Shown: positions 2,732-57,141, counted from the first letter of the whole stretch. The stretch is 63,985 nucleotides of DNA, filler included, from Reclinomonas americana ATCC 50394 (GCA_048213135.1; 7 parts of 5 records of this genome joined end to end with filler, not necessarily neighbours in it); one strand, 5' to 3'. Translations and numbers: made by a program. The notes: generated by a model not told the origin, from the sequence alone.

Positions 2732-5700
2732 ACGAGGAAGCACAGCTGGCCCGCGCCCTCCGCGAAAGCGAAGCCGAGGCCTCGGGCGGCCGCCTGGTCC
2801 TCACTGGTGGCGGCATGAGAATCGACGACGATGACGACGACGACGACGATGCTGGCGGTGATGCCGACTCGGCCGCCAGTGCCGGCGGCAGCGACGACGC
2901 CGCGGCCGTGGTCGCCTCGGGTCCGTCGCCAATGGACGACGAGGCCGCCGAGTGGGCGCACGTGCTGGAGGTGGCTGAGCAGGCCGAAAGGGGAGCAGGA
3001 GGTGTGGCCGGCCGTCCTCCGTCGCCCCCGTTGCGACCGCCGCCGCCGCCGTTTGTGCACGCGGGTGGCAGTGCGGCGCGGTTGCCGCTCGATCGTGTAC
3101 CGAGTGGTGGTGGCGGTGGCCTGCTGGTGGGCCCACCTAGTAGTGGCGGGCCCCCTCCGCCGCTTCCGCCGCCTCCGTCGCTGCCCATGCCCGGTGGACC
3201 GCCGGCGCCGCTGGTGGCTGGCGAGTCGTCGATTCGCATGGGCGGCGATTTCTTCCCGCCGGGTTTTGCGCTGGAGGGTGCCGGGATTCCAGGTATTGGC
3301 ATGCCGGGGATGGGTGGCAGTGGGCGGAGACCGATGCCTGGGTTTGGGCGAGCGGACTTTTTTGGGGATGCCATTGCGTCGTCAAGGTACAAGAGGGGTA
3401 GAATGGGGGAAGGAGAAGGGTTTGAGGAGAGAGCGTATGGATGTCAACTGCGTGTGCGTTTAGAAGTGTGAGGGAGCGAGAGAAAGAGAAAGGGGGACGG
3501 AGAGAAAGGCAGAGTTGCGCCGTATCGTCAGTCGTTAGTGTTGTTTTGTTGCAGACTTTATGAGGAGAACTTCGTGCAGGCGGAAAGGACAGAGTAGAAT
3601 GACCGATGCGACAGCGTGAGATAGTAGGAGTGAGATTGCGTTTTGTCGCATGAATATTCACTGTTGGAGAGGACATATGTGCGTCTGTTAGAGGAAGGGC
3701 TGCAAGACTCTATGCGACCCACACCTGCATTTAGAAAGCAAGCGAGTACACTGCATTGCAGTATGTTAGAAGATTGAGGGAGGGAGACAGAGAGAGGGGG
3801 GAGAGAGAGTGAGAGAGAACGTATTGCGTGTTTCCTGCTTTCGCGAAAGTTGGATTACTTACTTGTGTATTCGTCGCAGAGGGCCACCTGGAACTGTGGA
3901 GACCACGCTGTGCTGCATCGACTGGTCATTTGTGGGGCGACCTGAGTTGAACTTGTCCGGCAAGGGTGCGTTGCTGATTCAAGAATGTGCCTTGATTGTG
4001 TATCGTTGCTCATTTGATCGTATCTTGGTGCAGTGTCATTGCCGCAGAGGATATTGCAAGAGTGCTGTTGCGTATCGTGGAGAGAGGGGGCACCGTTGTC
4101 ATTCGATTGTGTCTTCACTGGTGTTAATATTTCGCACTCAACTGCTTGTGATACGTCGTGCTCGTCTCTTTTTCATTGAGTTTATTTTATTCTCTCTGCT
4201 CTCTTCTCCTCGTTTCTCATCTCTTCATTTTCTATTCTCAGCTGACCTTTTCGCTGGCTGGAGGTGCTCAACTAGTACTCCTTTCACTTTTATCGCCGTT
4301 TTCCCTTTCCCCTTCCCCGTCTTCCTCCCGTTCTCTCTCCGCCCACTCTGTACCCCTCCTTTTTCATCCTTAACCTCCCGTCCTCTGCCGCCTTCTCACC
4401 CCAGTTCTCTTCCCATTTCTTTGCCTCCACTCGTATTTCGGCTCCCCTTCTCCCTTCTTCCTTCCGTTCTCCTGATCACTTTTCCTTTCTGTTCCCCTCC
4501 TTCACCTCCCGTCCTCTGCCGCCTTCTCACCTCCATGCTATCCCCCTTCCTTTTGCTTCCACTCATCGTCCGCTTCCCTCCTGATTCCCTTTACTTTTGC
4601 ATTCCCTGCCCCTCTCATTTTCCTCCTTCACCTCCCGTCATCTGCCGCCTTCTCTCCCCAATTCTCTCCCCCTTCCTTTCCTTCCACTCATCGTCCGCCT
4701 CCCCTTCCCCCTCCCTTTTCCCACTTTTCCATTCCCTGCTCCCCTCCTTTTTTCCTCCTTCACATCCCGTCCTCTGCCGCCTTCTCACCCCCGTTCTCTT
4801 CCCTTTTCTTTGCTTCCACTCGTCTCCGCGTTCCCTTCTCCCTTCTTCCTTCCGTTCTCTCCAGTCTCCATGACTTTCTTTTCCCTGGTCCTCTCCTGTT
4901 TTTTCTCTTTCGCCTCTCGTTTTATACCGCTTTCTCACCTCCATTCTATCCCCCTTCCTTTCCTTCCACTCATTGTCCGCTTCCCCTTCTACCTCCCTTT
5001 TTCCACTTTTCCATTCCCTGCTCCCCTCCTGTTTTTCCTCCTTCACCCCCCGTTCTTGCCACCGTTCTCTTCCCCCTTCATTTCCCTCATATTTCCCCCT
5101 TTCCTTCACCTCTCCTTTTCCCTATGCCCCCTCCCTCCTTGTCACCTCCTTCCCCTCACCTCCCTGCGTGGCAGTGATGCGCGCCGTGCCCATGCCCTTC
5201 ACCTTCCGCCTCGAGAACCCCATCACGGGCCTGGTGACTCACGCCAGTGCGCCCGAATTCGACGCCGACGAGGGCCACGTTGTCCTGCCACACTGGGTAA
5301 CGTCACAGATCTCTCGCACATTTGTGAGCATCTCACTCACCGGTGTCACCCACGACACAGATCATGCAAAACCTGCGTCTGGACTACCAAGACCAGGTCA
5401 ACATTCGCACTGTGGCGCCGCCACGCGGTGTCAAGGTCACCGTGCAGGGCCACTCGTCAGAGTACGCCCAACTCGGTGCCGAGTTTGAGAATGTGTTGCG
5501 TCTCTCAGTCGGTCTCGATGTCTGTCTGTCTCTCTCTCTCTCCCGCGCACACTCTCTGATTCTTTCTCTCTCTCTCTTTGCTTTTTGTGATCTTCATCCG
5601 TCGGGCCATCTCACTGTGTGCGTGTACTTTTGTGTATCGTTTCTGTACAACTCCATCTGCACCCCCCTTCTGTCTCGCTGTCGCGTCGCTATTATTTCTC

Positions 5701-11736: not shown

Positions 11737-14700
11737 TTACAGAACAAACGGATTGACCCGGCGCCCGTCGCACATGGGCGAGAACGGACACACGTGAGCC
11801 CACATGATGGCCTCCGAGAGCGGGATGACAGTGGCCCCATCGTCTAATATGTACATGGGACCCTGCAGACGAATCGTACAGCCGAGTCAGTTCACGGCCA
11901 CCCTCCCTTTCATCGAAGCACGCCACATCTCACCTTGACTTCCTTGCCACTGATGCAGCTGCGAATGGTAAATCCGAGGGGGCTTCGGGACGGCAGCGTC
12001 GAGCCCGTGACACGCACGACATTGATTTCACGCGGCAGAGTGTGTGGGTCATCGCCTGCATACACACATGTACACATGTTGTTCGGTCAGTCATCCCACG
12101 GTCTTCTTCACACCTCCTCCCATCGTTACACACGAACCGAGTGCGCGTCGGAACGCTGAAGCCGCTTGTGCCACCACCGCGGACGTACTTGGTTCGGTGA
12201 GGAGCTCTTGCAGCTGCAAGGGACATACGGTGAGCGTGGGAGGCATGGTGAAGATGAGCGCACGGCTGCACTGACCGCCTCGGTTGCTCGACGAGCACTA
12301 AAGGTGGCCAGCGCCTTGATCTTGACGAATTTTAGCCGATCAGGTACGAGTGTGCGCTGGCCGTTCATTTGCGATCTGCGAGGGAGCGGGAGAGCGCGCG
12401 TGAGTCACACTTTCGCGACGCCACGCCACGACGACGATCACGAAACAGAGCGCAGTCGACAAGTGCCGGCACGATCTCCGTGTAGCCCTTCCAGGAGGCG
12501 ACAAACGCCCCAACGGCGTAGGCATACATCAGCACCTCCTTCACATCCCTTGTGCGCAGAAAAAGAAGTCAACACACGACCAGACACAGAAAAAGTGGCA
12601 CATCCATCCCGTGCGCAACTCTATCGGCACCTCCATCAGCGGGATGCATGCGACCCACTCAATGATGCGCTGCATCTCGTTGAAATCCCACACGTCGGCG
12701 GCGGAAACCTGGCGCAACCGCTCAACAGCCATCTTGATGGCATCGTCATGAATGCGTGCCAGCACCGAGTACTTGAGCTGCGACGGGAAGTCTCCTTGTG
12801 CCGCCGAGTGGCTGACCACCAGCGAATCGCGGAAGGTGCGCGGATCACGCAAGCCAAGCTACGTTCGGGTGAAAGTGAGTGACGAGGAAAGACAAGGCAA
12901 GCGGAATGAAGAAAACACACACATACCTCTCGATACACCCTCTCGACCACGGTCTCGGCATTGTGGAATCGTGCACACACCAGCTCCTTGACTGGCACCG
13001 AGTCGCGCAGCAGCGGCGCCAACATGTTCACCAAGTCCCTGCATTCAATCACTCGCACAGGTCAGACACGAGAGTGGCACACACCGTCTCTGCGTGCTTG
13101 CTCACCATCGCTCATGGCCCTCGGCGGCAAAGATCATGTCACGCACCACACTCTCTTCTTCGCGCCACAGATTGAGAATCTTGCAAAGGGAGAATGCCAG
13201 ATCGTGCTCGAAATTCTTGGTCAGCGTGCGCACGGCGTTCTGCGATGAGAAGAAGAAACGAGAATGGGCATCGAGAATGCGGGAATGAGTGGGTGTGAGC
13301 ACAGTCGACACGCACATGCACGTCGGAGATGGCCAAGAAAGCGGCGGCCGCCCACACAGGTCGTGATGCTCGCTGCAGTTGCTCAGCACGAAGACGCGTG
13401 AGATTGGCGAGAATGTGATCACCATCAGGTGCGCGACTGGACGAGGCGGAAATGCGCATGCTCGACGTCCGCTCGGGTGCTACACGACATGAGAGGTCTC
13501 GTTGAGCTCCACAAAAACAAACATCTGCACCGTGCGAAGTGGGTGGTGTATCATGCCGCACCTGTACCACCCGGCGTCGACTGGCCGGCCGAGAACTTGC
13601 CGACGGCACTGCTCTTGGCGACCACCATTGCGTCGTCGAACTGGCCGCGTTGAATGTAGAAATTCAGCAGCTGGGGACCGCGAACAACAGTGAGCCTGAG
13701 CATACATACACGCTAGACAGGCAGGTAACGTAAAATTACAAACCCTTTCCACTTCACCCGAGGCCAGCAGCAACGGAACACAGGATTCGTCGCCAGTCTC
13801 CAGCAGATTCTGTCCCTGGCGTGAGGTGAGTTCTCGCCAGTAGTCCAGGCTGACGGCCGGTGCAATAGCCAGTGCCCGCTCCCACTGCCCGTTGCGTGCG
13901 TACAGCTCGGCGGCCCCGCGAATGTTGCCACACTGTGCGAAGTGTCACGATACAGACACACCGCGACAGCATCAACCACAGCACACAGACCTCGGCCATG
14001 TACAGAGCAGCGCGCTGAATGCGCTCGGCTCGATTGCGCAATTGCACCACGGCACCGACGGCCACGCGGACGCGGTTGCTGTTGGTAGGGCGCGACGAGA
14101 CTGCCGACGGCGATGACGGCTGAATCGTACAAGCAGAGCGCGGAGTGAGTGACTTTCTAATTGGCACGACGGACGGCCGGCGAGAGAGCACACGAACCAG
14201 GCGCGCCGAGGAGTCGATGACTGCTCGAATGCCGCTGACGTCACCGATGCGAGATCGCACAGCAGAGAGTTCACGCGCGCGGGCCTATTGCCAATCTGAG
14301 TGACTGCATAACAGCGCGACTCTCGATATCAAAACTGACCTCATACGTCGACAGCAGATCGTCGGCGTGCAGAATGTTGTTGGCTGGATTGCACGGCGTC
14401 GAGCGCACCACGCGGGAGAGCAAGTCAAAGATCTCGTCGACACCACTGGGGAACTGCGTGCGCCAGTGGCCGATGAGTGAAACAATTCAACCGACAGCCG
14501 CAGCACAACATTGATGGCCCACCGTGAAGAACTCGTGGAACAAACGGTGTCGTTCTAGCTCGTCCGAGCACGACCCCAGTTGCTCGTTGAGCTGCTGCGA
14601 TCCGCGTCCACACAGCTTGGGACGACTGTTGCGACGCATTACGCTCTCTGTCACATGCGCGCACGTGAGTCCACATACGCACACATACATCACCGTGCTT

Positions 14701-17700
14701 GAAATAACGCACCGGGGCTGTCACAAATATCAGCATCCCACCGCGAGCCGAGAAGAGCGGCAATCTTCAGCGCTCGCACTTCCCAGTCAAAGTCCCACAC
14801 GCGCAGAGTGGTGTCACGTGAGCCGCTGACAAACTACACACGCGCAGCTCATTCTGTTTAGTACACTCGACGCTGGGCAGGCGGCCANNNNNNNNNNNNN
14901 NNNNNNNCGGCTCCACACTGCCACTCACCGTGAAAGGTCTGAGCGGATGCGAGGTGATGGCATACACGTCGGCATAGTGATCAGAGAGTACGTTGGTGCA
15001 CGAGCCATCACTGCATGCGTGTGAGTCAGTGATCGCGAGAACAGCAGTCATTAATCTCGCACAGTACCGAGTGTCCCAGATGCGAATAGCACCGTCCCAG
15101 CCGCCACTCAGCAGCACGTGCGGCAACTCGGAACACCACTCCAGCGCACGAACATTGTGCTCGTGACCTTTCAAGATCAGGGGCGAGCTGTGCGTCTGCG
15201 CAAACGCCGAGTCGCAGTGAATAACCACACACGGATGACACACACAAACACTGAATGGATGCCAACGCACAGCTTTCGTGTCCCATATGCGCACAGTGCG
15301 ATCATTGGAGCCGGAGGCCAGAATGCCAGGCAGCAGTGGATTCCACGCCACATTGTACACCGCCGCGGTGTGGCCGCTAAAGATCTGGATGGTCGGCCGT
15401 TCGCTGGTCATATTAATCACGCGAACTTGCTTGTCGAAGCAGCCAGTGGCGAGGAGAGATCTGTCACGCAGCGAGACAACGATGGTGACGGTGAGGAAGA
15501 AGACGAGTGCAGACGGATGACGCCACACAGAGACCACCAACCCATCATGAGGCGACCAGGCGACTCCAAACACCACGTCGGGATGCTTGAACTTGTGCAT
15601 CACCGTGCCGTCGTCTTGGAAAACAATGCTGTCGTCGATCGCCAGTGAGTGAATCACCAAAGTCATGTGTGACACCAGCAACGGCGTTACCATTGCTTGT
15701 CCTTGCCACCAGAGGCCAGCACCGAATTCTGGTGAGCGTTCCACGACACCGTGTACACCGTGTCGGTGTGCAATTGCATCTGTTGCACAATGTTGCCACG
15801 CTCAGCGTCCCAAATGATAACATGACCGTCGGCAGTGGAGGCGGCCACCAAGTAGCCCTCTGCAATGTGCACGCACAAAGAAGGCTGAGTAGGCGGGTGG
15901 TGCGCACGTAACGGCAGCAGCAGCACATACCAGGCGACCACGTCACGGAAAAGAGCGTCGAAGGTGCACCCAACAGCGTGTCCACGCACTCCAGCTTGCG
16001 CATGTCCCACAGCTTGACGGTCTTGTCGTAGGAGCACGTGGCGAGGATGTTTGGATTCTCACAGCACAGCTTCGCGCCGAAAATGGTCTCCGTGTGACCC
16101 GGCTCGGTCAGGAACTTGAACTTTTTCTGCGCAAAGTCGTAGATGCCCACACTCCCGTCGATGAACGTGGTGATGGCGTCTCGCCGGTTCGGCAGGAAAC
16201 GGAAATCCATGAAGCCGGGATCACGCAGTCGCAGATTGTCGGTCGACGACCTGCGAAATGGTGAGCGAAAGTGGTAATCACAGCGACGCAGCAGCAGCAG
16301 CAGCGTACACGCACTTCTTGGACACGTTCCACAGAAACACATTGCCGTTCTTGCTGCCGACACTGAGAAAGTCGCCCGGTTGCGTGGCAATCCACTGCAC
16401 GCAGCGGACACCTGCAGCGAGGAGCGGCAAGTGAGNNNNNNNNNNNNNNNNNNNNNNNNNNNNNNNNNNNNNNNNNNNNNNNNNNNNNNNNNNNNNNNNN
16501 NNNNNNNNNNNNNNNNNNNNNNNNNNNNNNNNNNNNNNNNNNNNNNNNNNNNNNNNNNNNNNNNNNNNNNNNNNNNNNNNNNNNNNNNNNNNNNNNNNNN
16601 NNNNNNNNNNNNNNNNNNNNNNNNNNNNNNNNNNNNNNNNNNNNNNNNNNNNNNNNNNNNNNNNNNNNNNNNNNNNNNNNNNNNNNNNNNNNNNNNTGGT
16701 GCGGCAATCGCGAGATGTTGACGGTGAGAGAGGGTGAGACGACGGAGACCTGCTTGCGGCTGTCGGTAGTGATTGACAAACGAAGTGTTGCCGAGTTCAC
16801 CCATGGCTATGTGCCCGGCATCGTAGCCAATCAAAAAGTACTGGTGTGAAAGCGGGTCCCACTGCACGTCGGTGACAGCGCCACAGTCGGTGGCCGGCGG
16901 GTTGAAGTGGATCGGATTTGGCTTGGCACCACGCGACCACAGACTCGTGACACCGTTGGCGTGGCCGGCAAGGAAAACACCACCCTGTACACGCACACAT
17001 AAAGGGAGAAGTGTGAGTCACGTGACGCGGGCGACCCTGCACCGAAGACTCCACTCACGCACATTCTGCAGATTCCAACGCACAACGCGCACTTCCGACT
17101 TGACCTTGAGATCGATCTCGGTCACGTCGCCAGAGCGGAAGTTCCACATGACCACGTGCCCTGCCCGCAGAGTGAGGTGGCAGGAGAGATGAGAGAGAGA
17201 GCACGCGAACAATACGCAACCGTTTTCCAAGCCAACGAGCAGCACAAACTCCTCGTGTGGGCACCAGTCGAGCGCCGTGATCGCGCGTCCATTATGCTCA
17301 AACGTCGCCACAATCTCACCACGCGAGATATCCCACACGCGCAGTCGCTTGTCGAGCGTCGACGTGCACAGGAGCGACGTGGAGTGTGGCGACCTGTGTG
17401 GCACGTTCGTGAGCTGGATCTCCACCAAGAGCGCACCAGCGCCGACAACGCAACAGAGTCAATGCCGAGATCGTCACATCGTAGCCCGTAATCACTCGCT
17501 CCAGCGAAAAGTCGCTCACATCGTGCACATACACCGACAGTGTCGAACAGTAAAAGAAACGCGACGCATTGCCACACGCGAGATCTGCTCATCGATCGAT
17601 CGTCATCAGTGTACAGTGGATCACACACACACACTTGAACACGCAACTGTGAAACCACGCTTGTGTGCCTGACGGGATGAGGCCCTGTGGATTGCGACAA

Positions 17701-18030: not shown

Positions 18031-18939
<909 letters not shown>

Positions 18940-19009: not shown

Positions 19010-21143
19010 TCAGTCGTGATCGGGTGGTGGTGGTGGTGGTGTCAGTGGTTCGCGAGCCACCGACAGAACCAGGTCGACGAGAGCCGCAAGTCGTGTGGTG
19101 CTCTTGTCGCTGGCAGAGGCGCCCACGTCGGTCGCACCGCCGTCGCCGGGCAGCATCAGGTGCTTCATCTGCGACTCGGTCAGCGTGCACAGGACCTGCA
19201 CCGAGGGGTGCATGTGAGGATGGGAAGCATTACGGTGCGGCAGAGTTATGCTCAAAAAAAAAAAACGCAACGTGTGCTGCCACAGTCGGCAACACCAGAG
19301 CGAGGCACTCTTGCAGCAGAACCGTGGCCTCCTCTGTAGTGGCGGCAATGCTCTCCCTCAGCAGACGGCCGCCCTGCACTGCTGACAGCGCGTTCAGGTA
19401 GATGGATATGAGCTCATCGCGGGCGGTCTGCGTGGAGATGGCTGCCGATGGGAGCACGGAGGTGACAAAGAGTGTGGCGAGGTCGAGGACCGGATGTCCG
19501 ACCTGCAGGCGATCAGCGAAGGGAGCTTGTCGATCAAGCAAGCTGCGCACTGCACACTCACCATGGCGCCTCGGAGACCCAACAAACGGCATTCGGCTGG
19601 TGCGGGGTTGTCTCCACCATGGCGACGCAGCATCAAGTTGCTGATGGTACATGCTGCGGGGAGATGAGGTGAGACGTGAGGCCGCTGAATGCACTCATGG
19701 CTACGTCACCTCCGTGACACAGAGTGAGTGTGTCTGGCTGACGGCTGGCAAGGTAGTCCAGCACGCGCAGCACATCGGCAACCAACTCGTCCACTGCAAC
19801 GTCGTCTTCATCCACCTCCCGCTCCAGCAGTGTGCACGCTTGCAGCAGCGCCGGAAGCGCCGCCGCATGAACCGTCTTTCCGTACAGCACTCCACCAGTA
19901 CTGACTGCTCCGCTCACCACCGGCAGTGTTTCGTAGCTGGCGCGCGGTGCCGTGTACATGGTGGCGTGCAGTCGGGCCAGCGTCAGCAGCACTCCGGACA
20001 CATCTTGGACGTGTGTCATGTCCAGGCCTTGCGGCAAGCGCACACTCTCCCAGCCGTCGTTGCTGTTCAAGTCTTCGAGCACAATCACCCGGTCCTCCAG
20101 CGGCACCGCGTCGCGTGCTGCATACAGGCATGGCAGACAGCGTACTGTGCGTCGTTCCGTGACTCAGTGAGTTAGTCAGTCTCATTCATGTTTCTCGTTT
20201 CTGGCACTAGGGCGCAACTTGAGTCTGGTGGTCTCTCGAGCAGTGCCGTCTCGTACGCCCTGTACACTGTCAGTTCGCGGACAAAGGTGCTGAAGAGCGG
20301 AGTCGCCTTGGACGGTGGTAGCAGTGGCGGTGGCGGTGGCGTCGTCGTCAGCGGCAGTCCGATCCCGAGACCCGCTGTCAACTCGGCGAGCGCCAGGTGA
20401 TCGTTGAAGTCGTCGTCGCTGTCGTCATCGTCGCTGTCGTCGTCGGCGTCGTCCAGCAGACTGGTGCCACTGGTCAGCTGCGTGGCCGTCAGGCGGCACC
20501 ACAGCGGGTTGTCGTCGCCAGCCCCCTCGTCGCCATTGTCGAACTCCTCGTCGCCCGGCCGCCGCACAGGGCTCACATCCTCGTCGTCGTCGTCAGAGGT
20601 GGCAAACTTGAGCACTGCACTCCACAGTGCGTTCGCAGGCACACCTGTGGGTGGCTGCACAGATGTCACTCGAATGTCTCGACGGCGACGATAACACGAT
20701 GGCGTGCGCGCAACTCCATCGGACTGTGGGCACGCATACACGCGGTACACTGGCGCGCTGGAGGAGCCTTGCCGCAGCCGCTGGACAGCAAAGTGCATTC
20801 GCTGCCGCCTGCCCAGCACACACGCGTGCACAGGTAAAGTTAGTCTGCAAGAGAAAGATTCTCTCTCTCCATCTAGATCTGTCCATTCACAATTTTTGGG
20901 TTGAGGAGAGTCAGAAGAGGCGCATATCTGAGAGGCAGAAGGAGGAGATGGCAGTGCAGGCGATGTGCTGGCTGGTACAGAGACTTGGCGACTACCGAGA
21001 GTATCTCACCGTTCTTGCTCGTCCTGCGGCTTCTCTCGCCACGCCGACTCGGGAATCACCTGCGGCGACGACAGCCACGCCAGGAAACTCTCACTCGTTA
21101 AGCACCGCGGCAACGCAACCTGCGCGTGCGCCGCTGGATCCAT
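19010..21143 (-). CDS. EcKL (ecdysteroid kinase-like)/APH-fold protein, probably a pseudokinase
   Basis: Motifs in family order: LKF, FVRELTVY, IVLEDL, LARLHA, TLCHGA.T.SNLM, GHPVLDLA, ELISIYLNAL. The catalytic aspartates appear replaced. Confidence 0.65.
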
Positions 21144-39125: not shown

Positions 39126-42100
39126 GCAGCAGCAGACCAGACCAACCCTCTCACAGCGCATGTCGCCCGAGGATGGCATGTCTGTCAGCAGTTGCGATGG
39201 CTGCACAATGTGTTCGCATTNNNNNNNNNNNNNNNNNNNNNNNNNNNNNNNNNNNNNNNNNNNNNNNNNNNNNNNNNNNNNNNNNNNNNNNNNNNNNNNN
39301 NNNNNNNNNNNNNNNNNNNNNNNNNNNNNNNNNNNNNNNNNNNNNNNNNNNNNNNNNNNNNNNNNNNNNNNNNNNNNNNNNNNNNNNNNNNNNNNNNNNN
39401 NNNNNNNNNNNNNNNNNNNNNNNNNNNNNNNNNNNNNNNNNNNNNNNNNNNNNNNNNNNNNNNNNNNNNNNNNNNNNNNNNNNNNNNNNNNNNNNNNNNN
39501 NNNNNNNNNNNNNNNCACGGAAACATTGGTGGTGATGCACCACTGAATGCACACAGGCCTTGATCATTTAGCAGATCCAGCGCTGACGGATACTTGGCGC
39601 CCAGTGGGTCAGTCACTGATTGGTCGCCGAGGGCACGCTGAATCACTGCCAGACAATTGCGTCAGTGGTCACACATGGAAAAGTACAAGAAAAGGCGAAG
39701 CAGGCGCAACATGCGGCGCGCATTTGCCGTGGCACATTGGTCCAGTCGATTCGTGGAGTAGACTTGCCACCGCGCAGGTATCGTACCTGTCGGCCAGCAA
39801 ACGAATGAGACACTGACAGACTGAGACCGAGTGCAAGAGTACAGCATACCAGTGTTCTCGGCGAGAACAGCGGATGCAGCTGATACAACTCGTACACCAG
39901 ACACCCAACAAAGAAAATGTCGTCGCTGGAAACACAGCACATCATGAGTATGTTACTTGTGCAGGCGCAGCAACTGTGTGCGCACCTCTTCATGTCATCC
40001 AGCGACAGCGGTTGCTTCTCCGTGTCGCACACGTCGGCCACGTGCCGGCAGGGCCACAGAATAGGATCGTGATCGGCGGTGAATGTATTCACACTCTCAA
40101 TGCTGTCCAGCCCATCGAAGAGATGCGGCGACATGTCGACGCCAAATGCTGCAATGAGTCTGTTCAGTGCACCTTATGCTGAACNNNNNNNNNNNNNNNN
40201 NNNNTCGTGCTGACTGATCGCTGCAGGCACCTTCCCCACGTACTTTCACCAAGCGTACGACTTGCTGAGTCGGCTGTATGCGTGTCGGACGGTGGAGGAG
40301 TCGTGCGGAGTGTTGTCACTGTGTGAGAGCACGTTGGTCGACCCGCGGGTACTCGCCAAGGAGGGCTTTGAGTTGGCGATTCCGCACTTTTTGCACATTT
40401 TTGAGTCGTGTGGTTTGTTTTGCGTTCCGGTCAGGAGTCGATTGATGCATCACTTCATTCTCACTGGTCGGCGGTGATAGATGTTTGGAGGATTGGGCTC
40501 GGGTCACTGCGCTCGCTCTCTCGTCGCATTCGGTTGGATGCTCCGCGTGCGATTGCCAGCTTCCTGGAGATTTGCAAGTCAATCTACGAGGTAATGCCAG
40601 TGATGTCCACTGTATTGAAGAGAGAAGGAGAAGAAGAGAGGAGGAGAGAGGGCGAGAGAGAAAGAGAGGGAGAGCGAGAAACGAGAGAGAAGACCTCTTG
40701 TGCAGTGACTGACTGCCTCGTATGATATCCGTAGCGACATCGCGACATCGACACGCAGCTGTTCTTCTTCAGTGTCCCGGTGCTGGATACGTTGTGCACA
40801 CTGTTTGGAAAGCAGGCATTCGCCGACCACTTTTTCCCCTATTGCATGGAAGCGATGCGCGAGCGGGAGGCAAGTGCAGACTGGGACTGCTTATTCTTCC
40901 CGCGTCGCGGTGTACGTGCTCACGAGGTTACTGGGACGATGATACGCAGCTTGCTTCGCGTCTTGTGGAACCCTTTGCCCTCCTGCCGTGCTTTGTCGGC
41001 GAACGGCTGTCGATGCAAGTGGTTGTGCCGGCCCTGCTGCACGAGGTCAGCCGGCAGCATCCCAATGTGTATCCGATTATGCAACTGCTGTTCAAGTACT
41101 GTGCGCTGTTGCGTTTGCTGAATCCTTCCACATGTCATCCTCTCTTTTTTCTCGCTTCCGCGTTGATCCGGCCTGATACGTGCGCATGCACACACAGCTT
41201 TGGGCCACAGTTCGCCGCCGACCACATCATTCTGCGTCTCCAAACGCTATTGTTGGATGAACTTGAAGAGCATCGACAGGAGTGCGGCAAGGCTGCGGCC
41301 GCTGCGGCCGCTGCAGGTGCCACCGGAAGCACGTTGGAAGTCAACGATGGTCGTAGCAGCGGCCGCTCGTCGCCCATCTCCGCCGACTCTGCAGTGATTC
41401 CGCGCGCTGCGCGCCGTGGCTGGCGTATTCACATGCTGCTCTCGTTCCTCACCTCGCTGGCGAGTGTGGTTCCTTCAGCGCTGTACTTGGAGGTGCGCCA
41501 CTGTCGTCGTTGTCGCTGCTCGGTGTGCATCTCTTCTGACAGTTTGGTTGCAGACGCTGCTGTCGGAGCCGCATAATCTCGTCGAGTCGCTCCACGACGT
41601 GCTGTCCAACCTGCCTTTGGCCATTTACTCGGAACTCGCATCTGTTTTCACCGTGTCCATCATGAATCTGGAGCCGCAGAGAGTTGCGTATTCACTGGAG
41701 AGTGTGGTGGTTTGCGCAAGTGATCCTGCGTGCTAACAAGTGCATGCAGATCGATGGCGTTGTGCGCTCGTTCGAGCGGTTGTTGTCGTTTGAGGAAGTG
41801 AGGCCACCAGAGATGTCTCTTCAAAGTGCGTGGCGCGCCCCAGTGTGTATACACAGTGCGTGTTCTCCCTCCCATCACGGCCGACTGACAGATTTTGGTG
41901 ACAATGCAGACAAGGATGATGTCGATCGATTCCACACACAGCGTTGCGTCTGCTCCCCGAGTTTGTCTCTCACCACCTTGTGCTCACATCCCGATCACAG
42001 TGAGCCGCAATGTCAATCGGCGCATCGTGTCGCAGGAGATTTCGTCAGAGGTGATGGAGACAGTTGGCGAGAGACTGCAATTTTTTGTGCAATCACTGAC

Positions 42101-44465
42101 ACCTCCTCCTCTTGGTCACACAGCTCTCCAAGATTGCCCTGCTGTACCACAAGCTGTCGCAGCTGTTCCCAGCCGCCCCGGCCAGCATGCGACAGTACAC
42201 CGAGTACCACATGATTCTGGAGCAGATCATCGCCTCGTCGTCGCTGGTTGGGTGCGTATCGTCGTGTTTCAGGCACATTCAGTGGCTGTGCATCTCTCAC
42301 ACACTATAACAGACCGCTGGCCACTGACGGCTCTCGACCGAGTTTCTTGTTCGAGACCATCACACGTGCGGCACAGGGTCTGCCACCGACCGGTGCGTCG
42401 TCACTATCGTCGTTGTTGGTTCTCTCTTTCTTCGGTGCTTCCTGACGCCGCGGTCGCCACAGCCGGTGAAACCGTAGCTGCCGAGTGGATGCAGAGATGG
42501 CACGGTAGCAGTGCTCCACGCGTTCACTACGTCTCCGCTCTCGGCCTTGCCCTGCTCTCGGAAGTGCAACGAACCCCTGCCACACTCGTGGCCACTTCCT
42601 GCTGGCGCCAGCATCCACCGAGGTCTCGCTTGATCACACGGCACACAACTCGCACCTTGGCTGTCGGTGCTGCTGGTGATGGTAAGAGTGCACGTGATTT
42701 CTGAGTGTCGCCCCGATTGTTGACTGAATGTGTGTGTGTGTGTGTGGCACTCTTGGGCAGATGACGCATCGCACGGTCGGTGACAACCTGCTGTTTTTTC
42801 GTGTATTGCGATACCCGTTGTTGACACATCTTGCTGACGGCAGGTGCATTCAACTCACTCGAGGGCATTCCGACCAAGGTGCTTCCGGTGGCGTGGAGCG
42901 GCCAGTTCCTCTACGAAGTGGATGTCGGAACCATGGTTAGGAGCTTTTCGCTTGCGTGCTTCACTGTGCGAAAGGCAACCTGAGACTTACGTGTCACCGC
43001 CAGCCGAAATGCATTACGGCGTACGAGGAGAGATCGCTGTTGGGAGTTGGTGGTAAGGACGGTTCTGTCACTGTGGTGCCCCTCTTTGGAGATCACGGCG
43101 CAAAGGTGAGTCATTCTGTGTGCAAGTGTGTTGCTACCTTGTGCTCAGTGCGATCCGTGCGCAGAAGCGGTTCAGGGAGCATTCGTCGGCCGTGCACTTT
43201 TGTCAGTTCCTGCGCGACGGCATGTGGTGTCTCTCCTCTGACCATACGATACGGGTGGGTGCTTTCGTGACGATGCTCTCTTGTTTCAATTTCTCCGACC
43301 TCACACCCTCCGCCGANNNNNNNNNNNNNNNNNNNNNNNNNNNNNNNNNNNNNNNNNNNNTTAATTAATTAANNNNNNNNNNNNNNNNNNNNNNNNNNNN
43401 NNNNNNNNNNNNNNNNCAGCTGTGGGACGTGGAAAAGGAGGCCACGTTGCTGTCGTACCGTCCGTACGGCTCACAAGTGGCGTCGTGCACCGCTGCGTCA
43501 GCACTGCAGGTGGCCATTGTGGCCACGCAAGAGTCGGAACTGAGGTGTGTGCGCTCGTACTCGCTCTCGGGCATTTGTTCCTTCCTGTAGTGCTGTCTCA
43601 CTGGTGCTGTCCTCCCCCCCGCAGACTGATTGATTTCCGCCGCTCTGCCGTGGCTGCGCGTTGGCGTCTCGACATTCCTCACTTGGCGCGTCCGTCCGTC
43701 CGTTCGGTCGTATGCAGTCCGAGTTTCGTGATGGACGCAACTGTACTCTCGTGTCGTGTGTGGTTGATGAATGTGCGCTCTGTTACAGATGACATGCATC
43801 TCGCCGTCGCGCTGTCTTCGGGACACGTGCACCTGTTGGACCAGCGAGTCGGTGTCTGCTACGCGCACTGGAAGGCACACGAAAGCAATTTGTGCAAGGT
43901 GCGTCTGTCGTGCGATCGCATGTGTGTCGGCGCGACTCACTCGGCTGCACGCAGGTGGCGTTCTTGACGGAAAATATTCTGGCCACGGCCTCGTCGTCCG
44001 ACCGCGCCGTATCTCTGTGGAATGTCGGGGATCTGTCGGTGCTCGATCTGCAACCCTTCCCCACTGCCGGTGAGACGCGCACCGTACCGTGCTGTTGCGG
44101 AGATGAGTTCTAATCATGAGGATCTTGAAACAGACACACAGCGGCGACTGGCCACGACGGCCGTGTCGAGTGTCAATGACATCTGTATCAGCACTGTGCA
44201 CTCGCAGATGCATCTCCTGTCTCCCACTGGCAGCGCCTACTTTGAGTGGGACAGTCGCAGTGGCCCGTTCAATTCGGTTCGTGATGCTACACGAGTTCGT
44301 CATTCTCCCGAGACGCGCTGACATGTCTTATTGCAGATGTCGGCATGCAATCCGGTGGTGTCGCGACCAAAGACCATGCCGAGTCTGACATGCGCCACAA
44401 TCCTCGAGTTCCACGACATGCTGGCATTCGGCGCGGAAGATGGCAATGTGGCGGTGTACAGATAG
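34648..44465 (+). CDS. WDR81: WDR81/LvsG-like BEACH, kinase-like and WD40 protein; internal segment 39516-40184 assembled in reverse
   Basis: BEACH domain: [118 protein letters not shown]-terminal WD40 repeats end [13 protein letters not shown]. The start codon is less certain. Confidence 0.88.
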
Positions 44466-44633: not shown

Positions 44634-47029
44634 TCACGTCATGGGCGTTGCCGATGGCGATGAGGCCGGCGACACGCGAGAAGGCGACACACGGGGTGGT
44701 GAAGGGGAGAAATTGATCTTGTGCATGAGATGGCAGCGGCGCCAGTCCACGTCCTGCAAACGCACGAATGAGACAGATGAAGGCACCACCGTACAGTCGG
44801 GGGAAGGGACGGAACTGAAGACGGGAAGGACGGTATCCCTGGTGGAGTACGTGCCCGTTCCACCACTGTTCCAATCTCTCGATCGCGACCTCGCGGCGGT
44901 GGAGACGCCGAGATGCCGCGCCACGAGATGATATCGGAACTACCGGCGGCCACACGTCGCGGTGAGCACTCACCATTCGCCTTGCGCGATCGTCGATCCG
45001 CGATGCGCCCGGCCAATTGCAACCAGTGTTGCGCTGCAGGTGCGTACGGCTGCGTGTGATGCAGAGGGAGTAGTACGTCAGCCATGTGGAGGAGATAACA
45101 GTGGATATGGCCATGATAACGCAACAACACACACACGAGGCGATGAGGCCTCCGAGGCGGCAGTGAGCAGATTCGGGTCACTGCCACTGTTCTTCCGGTT
45201 CCTGTGGTACATTGTGAGTAATTTAACTTCACCCAACAGCAAGACTTGCTTGGCAAAAACGCACCCTTCGGTGTGAGATATCGAATACTTAGGCGATTCG
45301 AGAAACAGACCGTAGTACGCGTCGTAGGAGAGAGCCTTGAATCCCGTTACTGACGAGGGATTGTGCCTGTACCACACAAGTGAGACAGATGAAAAAAACT
45401 ATTTCTCGTCGTGACAAGAATGAGTACCTGGTGTACGGTGAACCGTGTGGACCGGCAGTCATGGGCGATGACGACCTGTCGCACAACGATGAGCATGGAC
45501 ATGGAAACTGCTTGCAGGCGAGACCACACGCACACGCACCCAAACGCCGATAAGAACTCGGGCAGCGAGAGCCCGGCAGACGGATTCGCTGGCGCACACG
45601 CCGAGATGATGCTCTTCACTTGATCTGTCGACAGTGACAAGTTGCAGCGGCGAAGACCTTCGCGGAGCTCCTCCGCGGACAGATTGCCTGCGAGGAAGAT
45701 TGAGAGAAACAGAGCCACCTGCACACATACACATACACCCACCACGTACCATCGCGTTGCGTGTCGAGCTCGCAGAACAGGCGCGTTGGACTTGACCATC
45801 GCTCTTGTAACTTGGCGCGCGCCAGTTGTCGCAACTGAAACGTGGACGGCGACACGGCAAACGGTTTTGGTGCAGGTGGTGGTACAACAGGGAAAGACGA
45901 GGAGGCGGGCACGTCCGCTGAACGAGGTCTTGACTGTGGAGAGACGGGGAACGACACGCGTTTCCTCCGTGATGGTCGCCGTCCTGGTGATGAATCGCGA
46001 CTGTTGGGCGACGAGCTGTCGTTGCTGCTGGGTGACTGTGTGTGGCGCAAGAGAGTAATAAATGACCATTGAATCTACAAGGGGCACCGCAGTGATCAAT
46101 ACCTGCGGTGCATCCATGTACGTGTCGAGGCGTAATGGATTACGATCTCTGCAAAAAGGACAATGACGGTGAGTACAGACAGAGAGCAGAGAGTGCGAGA
46201 AGAGCATACATGCAGACGACGCACAATGGTCGGAACTCGCGCGGTCCAGCACTTCGTCTCGTGGATGGAGAAAGGTCCTGCGTGAAAGAAGAAGATGGAT
46301 GAGTGGGCGACTCGATGAACCCCACACATACACGCGGCAGCGAAAGCAACTCGCGCAGTTGGCGAGGATGGAGATGCAGGATTACTTGATTGTCTGCAGG
46401 CGCACATGAGCGACGTGGCAACGATAAATACACACACGCGCGCGCACGAAACTTGTTCAACGCATCGAGGCTTATTCGTACATGTGGTCGAGTATTCTGT
46501 GAGGCAGATTCGTGAGTACCAAAGTTGTATGTAAGCAGCGCTTGACTGCTCACCACCGACGGGTCGGCTCGCGAAGGCGCGTTGACGCGACGCTTCGACT
46601 GGAAGAGTTTCACCTGCGTGCGTGCGAGAGGAGTGAGGCGAAAGATTGCAACGCGGTCTTCGTGCATCACATGACTGACCTCATTCGCCTCCTACCAATG
46701 GACCCACACAAAAGAAACACGCACGCACACACACGAGATGAGAGGGAACGTGAGAACCATGCCGTAGTGACTCTGATGATTCTGCGAACCGGAAACGTCG
46801 CGCTCGGAGCAGCATATCTGGCGCACACGGCGGTCAGCACGCGAGAGAAAGAGAGAGACTCTCGCCGTGTGCATGCACGCAACCTTGACTCTTGCCTCAC
46901 ATGCGACTGCGCATCGCCATTGGTGCCCGTCACCGCCGCACGAGCAAAGGCGTGAATCGGTGCTGCAGAGAGTGCATCATGTCGTGTCTTCTCTTCCAAC
47001 TGGAGAAGGGTGACCGGGAGCGTCGACAT
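44634..47029 (-). CDS. Protein with an EF-hand pair and a possible degenerate PARP/ART-like fold
   Basis: EF-hand: LFCELDTQRD|GNLSAEELREGL..LSLPEFL. Weak ART-like motifs: YYGLFLESPKYS..VLLLGEV..CYLLH..LLP. GT-AG introns. Confidence 0.5.
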
Positions 47030-50821: not shown

Positions 50822-50862
<41 letters not shown>

Positions 50863-50940
50863 GTGTGTGTTGCGCATGCATGCTCATTGTCTCCNNNNNN
50901 NNNNNNNNNNNNNNACTGCATTTGCAACACATACACACAG

Positions 50941-53082
50941 CGTGCTGTCAATGACCTGCGCGTCACTACGCGCCTCGGCATTCGTGCATTCTCCAAGCAC
51001 GTGAGTGTGTCACAAAAACAACACACGCACATGCTCACATATGAGTGAGAGAGAGAGACGACTGATTTTTCCGCGCTTGTCTGTCATTTTTGATGAGCAG
51101 CAGGAGCACTCTGCTCCGATCCCGCCGACTGCGAATCTGCATCGCGATGTGGTGCCTGCGTTGCCCAAGGCGGCAAACCTTGCGCCTGCGCATGTGACCT
51201 CCATCGAACACTATCACGAAATGTATCGTCGTTCCATTGAGCAGCCGGAGGAGTTCTGGAGTGAGCAGGCCTCGCAGTTCTACTGGAAGCAGCCGTGGAA
51301 CAAGGTCGATTCTCATATGCTGTGTTTGTGTGCGGTGACGAGTGTGATTGTCGGTGCTGAGTGTGCCCCGCGTCAGGTTCTGTCGCACAACTTTGATGTG
51401 CGTCAGGGACCGATCAACATTCGCTGGTTCGAGGGTGCGACGACCAACTTGTGCTACAACTGTGTGGATCGCCACTTGGAGAAGCACGGCGACACGGTGC
51501 GCCTGAGAGAGGGAGGGAGAGAGAGAGGAACAGGCAGGCGTTGTCCGTCTCATAATGTGATGCAGACGGCCTTTTTCTGGGAGGGCAACGACGGCGAGAG
51601 TCGCCAGATGACGTACCGTGAGCTGCACGAGCAGGTGTGCCGCTTCGCCAATGTGCTGCGTGCGCAAGGTGTGAAGAAGGGCGACCGTGTGGCCGTGTAT
51701 ATGCCGATGGTGCCGGAGCTGCCGGTCATTGTTGCGTTGCATTGGTGGCATTTTTTCTCTTCTTTTTTCGGCCCTCATCTCACCGCTTTGTCGACACAGT
51801 TGCTGGCCTGCGCTCGGTGGGTCACTGTTGAGCTGCATGCGTGTGCGCCGTGAGCGACTCACTTTTCTTTTGCGTGGGCAGTATCGGTGCTCCGCACTCG
51901 GTGGTGTTTGGCGGCTTTGCGCCGGACTCCCTCGCCGGTCGCATCTCCAATGCCGGGGTACGTGTGTGTGTGGTCGTCTGTCGTGTGCTGCATAGTGCAT
52001 GAGTTGACAAGGCCCGTGCGCAGGCCAAGGTGTTGGTGACTGCCGACGGGTGCAACCGTGGTGACAAGGTACGATGCATCATCTCCGTTGCGGAATCCGA
52101 TCTCGACTCAAATGATGCATCGATGATGGCACACGTGTGCAGAAAGTTCACCTGAAGGAGATCGCCGATGAGGCCATGGACATTGCGGCGAAGCGCGGTG
52201 ATGTTGTGGACAAGTGTATCGTGTTCCGTCGGTTCGTGTGTGTGGGTCCACATGTCGTTCCTCTTTGACGCAAGTGACATGCTCTCGTTGCAGCCACCCG
52301 AACGATCCGTCGTTCAAGATCAACATGAAGAGCGGTCGCGATCTCGAGTGGTCAACGGAGATGAGCAAGGCATCGACGGACTGCCCGGTGGAGTGGGTCG
52401 ACAGCGAGCATCCGCTCTTTGTGCTGGTGTGTGGTTTTGCAAGAGAGAGCGAGAGAGTGCAACACCATGGACTCACGTGTAGGAAATGCTGCCACTCGCG
52501 CGCAGTACACTTCGGGCTCCACTGGTGGGTTACTTACTGCGCTCTGCGCACTTTGCTTATGCGCGCCAACTAACTCGGTCTCATTGCAGGTGCGCCCAAG
52601 GGTGTCGTGCACACCACTGGTGGCTGTTGCGTTGATGCACGTGGGCGCTTTTTGTGCGAGTGCATGCCGCAAGCTCACGTCCGCATCACAGACATGGTGT
52701 GGACGTCCTCGACGTGGAAGTGGACGTTCGATTACCACCCCGGCGAGACGTTCTTCTGCACTGCCGACATTGGATGGTGCGTGAGGCTGAAAGGAAGACA
52801 CGATCCATGCATACTCGTGGTTGACTGTGCGTGCAATGCAGGGTTGCCGGTCACTCGTTCATGGTGCGACTCGGATGAGCCGTTGTGGTGTTGCTCATTG
52901 TGGTGTGCGCGCTGACAGAGTTCGCATTCTAGGTCTACGGACCGCTCAACAACCGCGCCACGCAAGTGCTGTTTGAGGGCGTCCCGGTGCATCCTGGTTT
53001 GTTGAATGTGCATGTATACATGCAAGAGGGCGTACAGTGACTGACTTGTGTGCGCGAGACAGGACCCGATCGCCTCTGGAAC
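50941..53082 (+). CDS. ACS: AMP-forming acetyl-CoA synthetase (partial; both ends run into gaps)
   Basis: [119 protein letters not shown]. Confidence 0.95.
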
Positions 53083-53324
53083 GTGAGTATGCCAGCTGCG
53101 TGCGTGCATTCAGTGGAGATAGTGAATTGACTCGCCANNNNNNNNNNNNNNNNNNNNNNNNNNNNNNNNNNNNNNNNNNNNTTAATTAATTAANNNNNNN
53201 NNNNNNNNNNNNNNNNNNNNNNNNNNNNNNNNNNNNNCGTACGACGAACGAACGTACGACTACGTACGTACGTACGTAACACGTACTTACTTACTTACTA
53301 CTAACTACTACACTACGACACACA

Positions 53325-53400
<76 letters not shown>

Positions 53401-54047: not shown

Positions 54048-54121
<74 letters not shown>
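54048..54121. repeat. (GT)n microsatellite
   Basis: About 36 perfect TG units. Confidence 0.95.
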
Positions 54122-54122
<1 letters not shown>

Positions 54123-54672: not shown

Positions 54673-57141
54673 GCTTTCAACCCCAGCAGCATCAGCAGGG
54701 TGGTGCATTCCGCGGCGGTCGCGGTGGCGCGCAAGCAGGCGCACAACGCGGTGCTCGACGTGGTGGTGGCGGTGGTGGCGGCTTTGCGCAACATCAGCAG
54801 CAACAGACGCCAGGCAGGAGAATGACAGCCGCCGCTCCGCCACCACCACAAGCAATGCCCGCGCCAGCGCAACCCGACACCTCGTCTGGCAAGTGGGTGC
54901 GCGGGCGCGGCGGCGGTCCCACCGGCACTGCGTTTCGTGGTGGTCGTGGTGGTGGTGGCGATCGTGGTAGTGGCGGCAGAGGCGGTGGTCGTGGCCGCCC
55001 ACCATTTCAAGCAGCAGCTGGAGGTGGTCCATCTCAAGTGACGGCTGCGGCAGGCGCAGGTGGTGGCGCCGTCCCGCGATGGCGCACACTGAAAATGCTG
55101 TACTTGCCGGCCGGCGAACAGTCGGAGGCGGCCGTGCGCCGCCTGCTGTCACAGTTTGGACGCATGGAGAGTGTCTTTGTCAATGGCGACCGTGCATTCG
55201 TGCGCTTCTCGCACGAGGGCTCGGCGCAGAATGCGTGCGCCACACTGGAGGCCAACGGCTATCGCGTGTTTGTGGTGCAGGATCGCATGAGCGATGCCGG
55301 TGGTGGCAGCGGCGGTGCCCCGGGAGCGTTTCCTGCGGGTCCGCAGCGCACAGCTGCACCCATGACGGCCACGGGTTCCACGATCAAGGTGCTGCATGTG
55401 CCGGCTGTCATCAACAAGTACCAGGTATGGTGGGAGAAAAGTGGCACAGTGGAGAGACGTAGTACTCGCTCTTTGCTTGATTGCTTCGTTGCTTCCGATC
55501 TCTTTTCTCTTTCTCTCATTCGCTTGTTCTATGTTGCGTTTCGTGTGTCGTTCTTCATTGCATTCCCAATCTTCTCTTTCGCTCTCTCACTTTCTCAATG
55601 TTACGCTGCGTGTGTCGTTCCTCCGCTCGCCACTTGTGCATTCTCAGTCTCTCTCTCTCTGTCATTCTCTCTCTATCACTCATTTACTTATTTGTGTTGC
55701 GCTGCGTTTGTCGTTTCTGTGCTCGCCACATTACTCTTCCTGCCTAACCCTCGCCCCTTTCCCCCTTATCCCTTCCTTTCTCCCCCCTCCCCTTTCCCGC
55801 CCTTCCCCTTCTCAACCTTTCCCTCTTTCACAGTTCCTGAAAAACCACTTCGCCCAATTCGGCCTGGTGACCAGCGTCGTTCCGAAACCCGCCGACGAGC
55901 GCGCCTTTGTCACCTTTGCCAACGCGGCGGACGCGGAGCTTGCACGCAAGGCCACCACGCACATTGGCGAGCACATGGTCACCGTGTACCTCGCAACCAG
56001 CGATCCCAACGCCGTGGGTGGTGGCGGTGCTGCTGCTGCGAGTCAGTGGCCAGCCGCTGCCGCCGCCGCGGCGGAGAGCGCGCCTCGCCCTCCACCAAAG
56101 GTCACGCTCAAACTTCAGCAGCAGCAACAACAACAGCAGCAGCAGCAGAGGCACCGCGCCGCACCGACCATGGAGTATGCCGCCGAGGACCAAGAGGAGG
56201 AGGAGACGGAGTATGGCGACGACGGGCAAGAGGTCTGGTGGCTTTTCACACCCTCCCTCCTTGCCTTCTCTCACTCTCTTCTTGACACATCAGGCTGGTG
56301 GCTCCTCCTTCGGCTACGCCGCTGCCATGAAGGAAATGGGACGCAAGCCGATTGCGCCTGCTACTGCTGCTGCGGCTGGCGGTGGACGTCGTCAAGTCGC
56401 GCCGCACGTGTCGCAACCGATGGCCACCGAATCCAGTGACAACCCTGAAATGTTGCGCCAGTCGGACAACTTCAAGGCCGGCAACGTGGTCTCCACCAGC
56501 GGCAAGCGCCTCCTCAGCAACACGCTGAAGAACATCATGTATCACAACCGCAAGGTGGAGGAGTTTGGTCCGCCGCAGATGCTCGAGTTCAACGAGACCG
56601 ACATTCAGGTGTACGATCCACGCGCTCCACAGCCTGCGGCATCGGTAAGTGTCTGCGTCTCGTAGTAGTGATTATCCTGTTGTGCTCATCTCTTTCTGGG
56701 CAAGCAGAGTGAGGCCGAGGAAGAGGAGGAGGCTGAGGAGGAAGAAGCGTACGCTGCAGATGACGCTGAGTATGCGGAGGATGAAGGCGAGGAGGAGTGG
56801 TACGAGGAAGGACAGGAGGAGGAGGAAGAGTACGTTGACGGCGACGAGACAGAGTACGAGGGCGTTGCTGGCGAGGACGAGGTGGACGGTGAAGGGGAAG
56901 ACGAGGAAGTAGAGGAGGAGGAAGATGCCGAGTACGCCGAGGATGTTGCGTGCGGTTTGAATCCATGGCGATGCATTGACCTTCTTTGCTCACTTTTCCT
57001 TGATTGCAGACCGAGTACGCTGACGAGTATTACGAAGGAGACGAAGACGGCGAAGGAGAGGAGGCTGCAGAGCAGGGCGATGGCGAAGAGGAGGAGTACT
57101 ATGAGGGCGAAGAGGAGGAGGAAGCGGATGATGCCGACGCG
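54673..57141 (+). CDS. RGG-box/RRM RNA-binding protein with acidic Glu/Tyr-rich tail (partial)
   Basis: RGG repeats; RRM1 LKMLYLP..FGRMESVFVNGDRAFVRF; RRM2 IKVLHVP..|FLKNHFAQFGLV..RAFVTFAN; acidic exons at 56708-57141. Confidence 0.75.

Follow-up and report, generated by a model that had tools for sequence, protein, structure and literature searches.

GTTNCG 5' splice sites in nuclear DNA of Reclinomonas americana: a putative second donor class displaced by one base

Do the introns of Reclinomonas americana carry a second kind of 5' splice site (donor), in which the consensus lies one base further into the intron than usual? The question is raised by a stretch of 63,985 nucleotides (nt) of nuclear DNA from this intron-dense eukaryote (hereafter the window; GC content approximately 53%), for which a sequence-only reading had listed 28 donors of the form GTTNCG, each resembling an ordinary donor of the window with an extra T at +3. 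All 28 hexamers proved to be where that reading had placed them, in both coordinate and strand. Pfam searches of open frames identify eight genes in the window (UFD1, an actin-related protein, a WD40 protein, an EcKL kinase, and HEAT, BEACH, acetyl-CoA synthetase (ACS) and RRM genes), and the evidence base throughout is this one window of 64 kilobases (kb) together with homologous proteins. Our analyses show that the GTTNCG sites are donors, that the cut is made at the GT, and that the class follows sequence rules of its own. On balance, we lean towards the view that these sites, which are mostly GTTGCGT, are genuine U2-type donors of about one fifth of the introns in the window, and that they would be bound by U1 small nuclear RNA (snRNA) one base out of register. 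In this manuscript, positions are on the plus strand unless marked as minus, and exon bases are separated from intron bases by a vertical bar, the last exon base being -1 and the first intron base +1.

Simple counting reveals no enrichment of GTTNCG in the window, which contains 129 matches compared with 131.4 expected from shuffled sequences. We scored GT sites for a 3' signature, defined as a YTVAY branch motif plus a YAG located 58-82 nt downstream of the GT, which is present at 963 of the 8050 GT sites on the two strands (12%). GTTGCG is the top-ranking hexamer by this measure, with the signature at 29 of 78 sites (p = 9e-9); the values are 8 of 19 for GTTTCG and 45 of 129 for GTTNCG overall. 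The excess disappears when the interval is moved to 100-124 or 150-174 nt. The word is also biased in orientation, lying 54 times on the sense strand and 21 times on the antisense strand in eight genes of known orientation (p = 1.8e-4), while three control words are symmetric between the strands of the same genes. In addition, the coding flanks of candidate GTTNCG introns are better than those of other candidates (p = 3.6e-5). Close variants of the motif do not behave in this way: no 3'-signature excess is found for GTTGC[ACT] (21/148) or GTTG[AGT]G (12/110), showing that G at +6 and C at +5 are needed, or for GTG.CG and GTC.CG, and GT[ACG]GCG has no strand bias, both of which show that T at +3 is needed as well. 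These results strongly indicate that the enrichment of GTTNCG lies in its use as a donor and not in its frequency as a word.

Individual junctions can be fixed by comparison with related proteins. A profile-to-DNA spliced aligner, which was free to start introns at any GT (or GC) and to end them at any AG, picked GTTNCG donors at eight positions, namely 51731 and 52626 in ACS, 37738 and 43723 in the BEACH gene, 10229 in the actin-related gene, and 17647, 17454 and 12619 (all minus) in the WD40-repeat gene. When GTTNCG donors are forbidden, every alignment score falls (by 34.6 for ACS, 22.6 for BEACH, 45.5 for the WD40-repeat gene and 62 for the actin-related protein), and the donors that take their place are poor ones. 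The earlier claim that the cut falls at the GT is supported, most directly at 52626, where the split codon t|ac encodes the invariant Tyr of the TGGY motif of ACS. This Tyr is restored only by cutting before the G at 52626, and the cut is therefore fixed before that G.

The ACS alignment (60-protein profile; score 943.8, or 909.2 with GTTNCG forbidden) contains 17 introns, of which we kept 13 (51305-53062) and dropped the four that lie beyond N gaps. The kept introns are 62-79 nt in length, with a CAG or TAG acceptor and a YTVAY branch motif. Eleven of the 13 have ordinary donors, all of which follow a G, and the other two have t|GTTGCGT donors (51731..51799, 69 nt, CAG acceptor; and 52626..52691, 66 nt, phase 1). 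A search for homologues of this ACS returned bacterial proteins only, at 49% identity or less. The gene as a whole (51191-53087) holds its 13 introns within 1.9 kb, with exons down to 17 nt (51800-51816) and 19 nt (52506-52524), and two of its introns are in frame and free of stops. Past the N gaps, the profile alignment placed an 83-nt intron with a c|GTTTCGT donor at 54932-55014, which we dropped as unreliable; it may correspond to another shifted donor, hinting at further ACS exons near 54.8-55.1 kb.

The BEACH gene is WDR81-like according to its protein cluster match. A profile with 36 WDR81-like proteins places a|GTTACGC at 37738 (37738..37805, 68 nt) alongside ordinary donors at 37523, 37932 and 38092, with a score of 462.9 that falls to 440.3 when GTTNCG is forbidden; in the C-terminal WD40 part of this gene, alignment fixes a|GTTTCGT at 43723 (43723..43788, 66 nt). 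The shifted donors of this gene (36855, 37738, 38308, 38777, 41683 and 43723) mostly follow GA (cga or aga), and those of other genes mostly follow T. For the WD40-repeat gene, three relatives define a single minus-strand gene running from 17678 to 11764, with donors at 17647 (a|GTTGCGT; 17585..17647, 63 nt with a CAG acceptor or 60 nt with a GAG), 17454 (t|GTTGCGT; 17394..17454, 61 nt) and 12619 (a|GTTGCGC; 12549..12619, 71 nt, AAG acceptor), the last of which was absent from the earlier list. This gene comprises approximately 1,180 codons and 24 introns, and is split into three or four by the open reading frame map and the gene finder; its best relatives, at 43-50% identity, are a Tetraselmis protein, an MMETSP transcript and a third protein. 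A metagenome scan with an exon of the gene gave 80 loci, none with more than 60% identity over a fragment.

The junction at 10229 (c|GTTGCGT; 10229..10293, 65 nt) is fixed by one actin-family relative (P0121), which scores 402, versus 340 with GTTNCG forbidden, and the positions of the Pfam Actin profile run on across this junction without a break. A homologue search with the actin-related exon gave a single match. UFD1 exons were searched against the PDB in two queries, which gave 0 matches and 2 weak matches, and these do not fix the donors at 5495 and 4067.

The alignments bear on whether the class might be an artefact, either because the junctions are misplaced and splicing in fact uses ordinary donors close by, or because ordinary GTGCG donors have acquired the second T through a sequencing error. 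The window does come from a gapped draft assembly, with 4,726 of its 63,985 bases being N, in 29 runs, and for 5 to 7 of the 28 sites independent support is slight or absent. However, the alternatives forced by a ban on GTTNCG are the poor, lower-scoring donors described above, and the enrichment of GTTNCG depends on distance and on strand, neither of which fits such an artefact. A homopolymer error in the second T was rejected because the same extra T would be needed at 25-30 independent donors; its removal would also yield H|GTGCG, a type that has no 3'-signature excess. We regard an artefact of either kind as very improbable.

How large is the class? The earlier estimate, made by eye, was roughly a fifth of introns, and each of our tallies agrees with it. 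In the homology set, which consists of 35 introns chosen by eye from the 48 aligned, 7 have GTTNCG donors. A gene finder whose donor model has two components, and was seeded with both classes, recovered 16 of 18 verified junctions, and its GTTNCG share is 11 of 51 introns, or 18 of 94 with relaxed penalties. The union of the gene finder and the homology set gives 19 of 102, and the class accounts for about 20% of the introns in the window. When a single donor matrix was used instead, the model drifted and recovered 1 of the 18 verified junctions. Donor-blind gene finders, which require only GT and are weak for such short exons, returned 80 introns in one case, few of them exact, and 15 in another, with 1 of 17 verified junctions; GTTGCG is the commonest donor hexamer in the former (7/80).

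In the union set, T at +3, C at +5 and G at +6 are present in 19/19 introns, these three being set by the class definition, and G at +4 and T at +7 are each present in 15/19. The corresponding ordinary donors have G at +3 in 51/83, C at +4 in 33/83, G at +5 in 72/83 and T at +6 in 53/83. All 19 introns of the class start with GT and end with AG (18 CAG and one AAG). A YTVAY motif is found in 16 of the 17 short GTTNCG introns and in 59 of 72 ordinary ones, at a median distance of 19 and 18 nt from the 3' end, respectively. Lengths do not differ either, at 66 nt for the class and 67 nt for ordinary introns, and the acceptors are alike. For eight introns of the class, removal restores both the frame and the match to homologues. 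Together, the GT and AG ends, the branch motif and the restoration of frame show the GTTNCG sites to be U2-type GT-AG 5' splice sites, as far as sequence features define that type.

Two other assignments were considered and rejected. The introns are not U12-type, since the donor is GTTNCG and the branch, acceptor and length are the same as those of ordinary introns, and they are not an introner family, since there is no interior similarity beyond the splice signals; when intron interiors are compared pair by pair, the mean local similarity score is 7.4 for pairs inside the class, 7.9 for pairs of ordinary introns and 7.6 for mixed pairs. These values also speak to the idea that the class reflects origin, its introns having come from an inserted element with its own complete donor, so that there was never selection for G on the exon side. 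Such self-contained introns would be expected to be indifferent to the base at -1, as is in fact the case (see below), and the idea is compatible with any mode of recognition. On the other hand, interior similarity is no higher in the class than among ordinary introns or between classes, and lengths and 3' signals are identical in both, and we consider an origin of this kind highly unlikely.

The sequence-only reading had emphasized a lack of G at -1, and its counts are reproduced: 3 of the 28 sites have G there (18638, and 17220 and 46883 on the minus strand), whereas all eight ordinary donors that it cited do. The difference is equally clear in the homology set, where G is found at -1 in 0/7 GTTNCG donors versus 25/28 others (p = 1.8e-5), when all 48 rows are kept (0/8 versus 29/40; p = 2e-4), and in the union set (2/19 versus 69/83). 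For ordinary GT[AGT]CG sites, the 3' signature is in excess only after G (28/110, versus 43/451 otherwise; odds ratio 3.24). GTTNCG sites have the signature in 6/19 cases after G and in 39/110 after another base (odds ratio 0.84), and the two odds ratios differ (p = 0.024). The near equality of 6/19 and 39/110 means that G at -1 is irrelevant to the class rather than avoided by it. Thus, the independence from the exon base stands, and the depletion as such does not; the -1 position of GTTNCG donors is G-poor in the manner of the -2 position of ordinary donors. Among the ordinary donors of the homology set, the only ones without G at -1 are 13315, 15270 and 16314 (all minus), and all three have a full GTGCGT(G/T), which suggests that the exon and intron sides of the junction compensate for one another.

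What form of recognition would produce these rules? The class 7-mer |GTTGCGT and the ordinary exon-intron 7-mer G|GTGCGT are identical except at one position. If U1 were to pair one base further into the intron, G at +1 would stand in for the exon G at -1, T at +3 would stand in for T at +2, and GCGT at +4 to +7 would stand in for +3 to +6, leaving a single mismatch at +2. The cut would still be made before the only GT, presumably being set later by U6 and U5. Because the length (approximately 66 nt), the YTVAY approximately 19 nt from the 3' end and the CAG acceptor are all alike, GTTNCG introns would be removed by the same machinery as other introns. Under a shifted register, T would be expected at +3 and at +7 and G at +6, and the base at -1 should not matter, and all four are seen; positions +1 and +3 to +7 of the class reproduce -1 and +2 to +6 of ordinary donors, and the class is independent of exon G at -1. 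C is obligatory at +5 of the class, versus 40% C at the equivalent ordinary +4, a difference that appears to compensate for the mismatch at +2. We infer the pairing register itself, the pairing of the U1 of Reclinomonas americana with C at the normal +4, and the behaviour of U6 toward the class.

Duplex modelling was done with two assumed U1 ends, the standard one (as printed in PMC4856993) and a variant that, like the Mastigamoeba core, places a G across from +4. With the variant end, H|GUUGCGUG is predicted to form a shifted-register duplex of -5.0 to -6.3 kcal/mol, while the unused GUUGAG and GUUGCA are predicted to fall to -1.2 kcal/mol. The model also bears on a different arrangement, in which a single U1 in the canonical register would accommodate the donor by bulging out one U, at +2 or +3 ("bulge +2/+3"). 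This is a validated human register in the cited passages of PMC4856993, and when G is present at -1 the model does pick the bulged register, at a predicted -10.7 kcal/mol. Two G|GTAACG donors in the window, at 5297 and 15690 (minus), have C at +5 and G at +6, with A at +3, A at +4 and G at -1; supported by homology or the gene finder (15690 is fixed by homology), they resemble GTACG with an extra, bulged A. However, a bulge keeps the pair between -1 and C9, so that G at -1 should help, and in GTTNCG donors it is not favoured, being found in 0/7 of the homology set and showing no benefit in the signature counts (6/19 with G versus 39/110 without). In the absence of G at -1, moreover, the modelled duplex favours shifted pairing. 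We therefore see the bulged register as possible, with rather low probability.

The tightness of the motif, with C at +5 and G at +6 obligatory and T at +7 in 15/19, would also suit a second U1 snRNA variant having a 5' end complementary to GUUGCGU, which would pair in an unshifted register. Lineage-specific U1 5' ends that co-evolved with donors are described for Entamoeba and Mastigamoeba in the relevant part of Roy & Bowser (bioRxiv 10.1101/2022.06.08.495308), and variant U1 genes are known in human. Against this, an Rfam scan of the window found no snRNA, nor any other RNA family, and a single U1 accounts more simply for how closely the class motif matches the ordinary 7-mer. We hold a dedicated second U1 to be unlikely.

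Several points weigh against the shifted register that we favour. The standard U1 end is predicted to give almost no pairing with the class (-0.3 to -1.4 kcal/mol), and a shifted register therefore needs a non-standard U1; yet in Thecamonas and the Mamiellales, according to the cited part of bioRxiv 10.1101/2022.06.08.495308, C at +4 coexists with a standard U1, so that a preference for C at this position occurs there without a non-standard one. According to the model, a G at -1 should also make these sites stronger by way of the bulged register (the -10.7 kcal/mol given above), yet G is not favoured, and the model rates H|GUGCGUG (-7.9) above the shifted sites, yet such donors make up only 3 of the 28 ordinary ones in the homology set. 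The decoys GUGGCG (-4.4) and GUCGCG (-4.1) are modelled as barely weaker than sites that are used. U6 would have to tolerate the extra base as well. Finally, the gene-finder tallies are partly circular, their donor model having been seeded with both classes, and the 35 introns of the homology set were picked by eye from 48.

The 28 listed sites differ in the support that each receives: 7 are fixed by homology, 8 are found by the gene finder, 8 have the short-intron 3' signature only, and 5 have neither. Of the last five, two (4067, and 34386 on the minus strand) lack coding support upstream as well. Among the gene-finder sites, the intron at 17161..17220 (minus; g|GTTGCGT, 60 nt) also has the 3' signature, homology being too weak there to place the junction. 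UFD1 contains an intron in its C-terminal part at 6448..6513 (t|GTTGCGT, 66 nt) and a 589-nt CT-rich intron at 5495..6083 with a t|GTTGCGT donor, which was found by the donor-blind and the relaxed gene finders. The relaxed gene finder also gave 18638..18697 (g|GTTGCGT, 60 nt), with a flank coding score of 6.3. The others are 56945..57009 in the RRM gene (t|GTTGCGT, 65 nt), 33295..33364 (minus; t|GTTTCGT, 70 nt), 41683..41688 (a|GTTGCGT, with the acceptor at 67 or 441 nt) and 37375..37437 (c|GTTTCGT, 63 nt). The last of these is not fixed by homology, as the profile alignment preferred GTCGCC at 37369 with a GAG acceptor at 102 nt.

For the sites with the 3' signature only, the flank coding score indicates how well a candidate short intron fits its surroundings. 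It is highest for the candidate donors at 36855..36860 (a|GTTGCGC, 72-nt candidate intron; 4.2), 27811..27816 (t|GTTGCGT, 58-nt candidate intron; 3.3) and 41943..41948 (c|GTTGCGT; 3.1), followed by 38308..38313 (a|GTTTCGT; 2.3) and 19266..19271 (minus; c|GTTGCGT; 2.2). The candidate at 38308 lies just past the BEACH domain, and three-frame translation gives an in-frame stop 9 nt past the first base of the donor. Weak candidates are 46878..46883 (minus; g|GTTGCGT; 1.3), 38777..38782 (a|GTTGCGT; 0.8) and 18082..18087 (t|GTTCCGT; 0.0 for a short intron).

Longer introns are possible at two of the five remaining sites. For the candidate donor at 24547..24552 (c|GTTGCGC), the best acceptor is at a distance of 356 nt; upstream, 257 codons stay open in a frame that scores 9.2, and read-through meets a stop after 9 codons. 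The candidate at 34905..34910 (t|GTTGCGT) would begin a long intron, with an upstream frame score of 7.8 and a read-through stop after 7 codons. At the candidate donor 10574..10579 (t|GTTGCGC), a strong open frame ends 4 codons on, and the P0121 alignment preferred GTGATT at 10585 with a GAG acceptor. The putative donors at 4067..4072 (t|GTTGCGT, before a 1.1-kb CT-rich stretch upstream of UFD1) and 34381..34386 (minus; t|GTTGCGT) are present as sites, and neither has coding support upstream or a short-intron 3' signature. We also noted four candidate donors outside the earlier list, at 20213..20218 (minus; a|GTTGCGC, 74 nt), 33733..33738 (minus; a|GTTGCGC, 69 nt), 41108..41113 (t|GTTGCGT, 90 nt) and 10715..10720 (a|GTTACG, at the edge of an N gap).

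Some features of the window are separate from the donor class. CT-rich low-complexity DNA surrounds UFD1, at 4353-4843 and 5874-6065 (both plus). The latter tract is inside the 589-nt UFD1 intron, and the former, upstream of the first recognised UFD1 coding exon, holds 3.8 tandem copies of a 132-nt unit with 75% matches. Long CAG/CAA and AAC repeat tracts at 59900-60400 leave poly-Q, poly-N and poly-C open in several frames. Several gaps (e.g., 8750-8849, 26664-26763, 43317-43416 and 53138-53237) consist of two 44-N runs with 12 real bases between them, which looks like odd scaffolding.

Non-canonical U1 registers have so far been rare human exceptions, and what may be new in the window is that a known recognition mode has been raised to a major class. 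If so, a major shifted class would provide a natural system in which the cleavage site is uncoupled from U1 pairing, and one that would bear on register slack in U6 and on the co-evolution of donors and snRNAs. A wider proposal, that two donor grammars operate side by side throughout the genome, with a second U1 (possibly with a flexible U6) or one U1 in two registers serving about one fifth of all introns and with exon G at -1 dispensable, seems doubtful to us at present. On the practical side, a gene predictor that relies on one donor matrix would overlook or misplace approximately 20% of introns, and our own single-matrix run lost almost all of the verified junctions. A literature search by the word GTTGCG or GUUGCG as a donor gave only primers and unrelated text and no account of such a class, although a paper on this species could exist.

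Among known systems, U12-type introns are similar in that they form a second class with its own donor motif beside a major class. However, U12-type donor and branch motifs look nothing like GTTGCG, and the branch motif, acceptor and length of the GTTNCG introns are those of ordinary introns. Closer parallels are found among human 5' splice sites. Roca and Krainer are said to have reported in 2009 that atypical human sites are bound by U1 in a shifted (+1) register, and Roca reportedly described bulge registers of human sites in 2012. In the sections drawn on here, the shifted register is established for rare human 5' splice sites (PMC4856993, PMC9311317), and validated non-canonical registers together make up approximately 1.5% of human sites (PMC4856993). 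As in the human shifted sites, the consensus of the GTTNCG class lies one base into the intron, G at +1 takes the place of exon G at -1, and the cut is kept at the GU. In contrast to those sites, which the same sections present as rare, the class comprises approximately 20% of the introns here and has a tight motif based on GTGCGT, with a register that is deduced from sequence. The human bulge and asymmetric-loop registers, as covered in the cited passages of Tan et al. 2016 (PMC4856993), share with the class an extra nucleotide between the GU and the G equivalent to +5, and a human +2/+3 bulge would also give a donor starting with GUU. Those registers keep the -1 G pair, however, whereas G at -1 is of no advantage here.

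The ordinary donors of the window have their own counterparts. Their GTGCGT consensus, with C or T at +4, resembles the GUGCGC preference of Mastigamoeba balamuthi, which in the cited part of Roy & Bowser (bioRxiv 10.1101/2022.06.08.495308) is matched by an ACGUAC core in U1. A GTGCG core is likewise common to these donors and the GYGCGY donors of the Mamiellales, as given in the passages used from Irimia & Roy 2008 (PMC2483917); those genomes are intron-poor, whereas the window is intron-dense, as illustrated by the crowded ACS gene. As far as the cited sections of bioRxiv 10.1101/2022.06.08.495308 extend, Entamoeba and Mastigamoeba have one donor consensus per species, whereas for Reclinomonas americana we propose that two registers may be used side by side.

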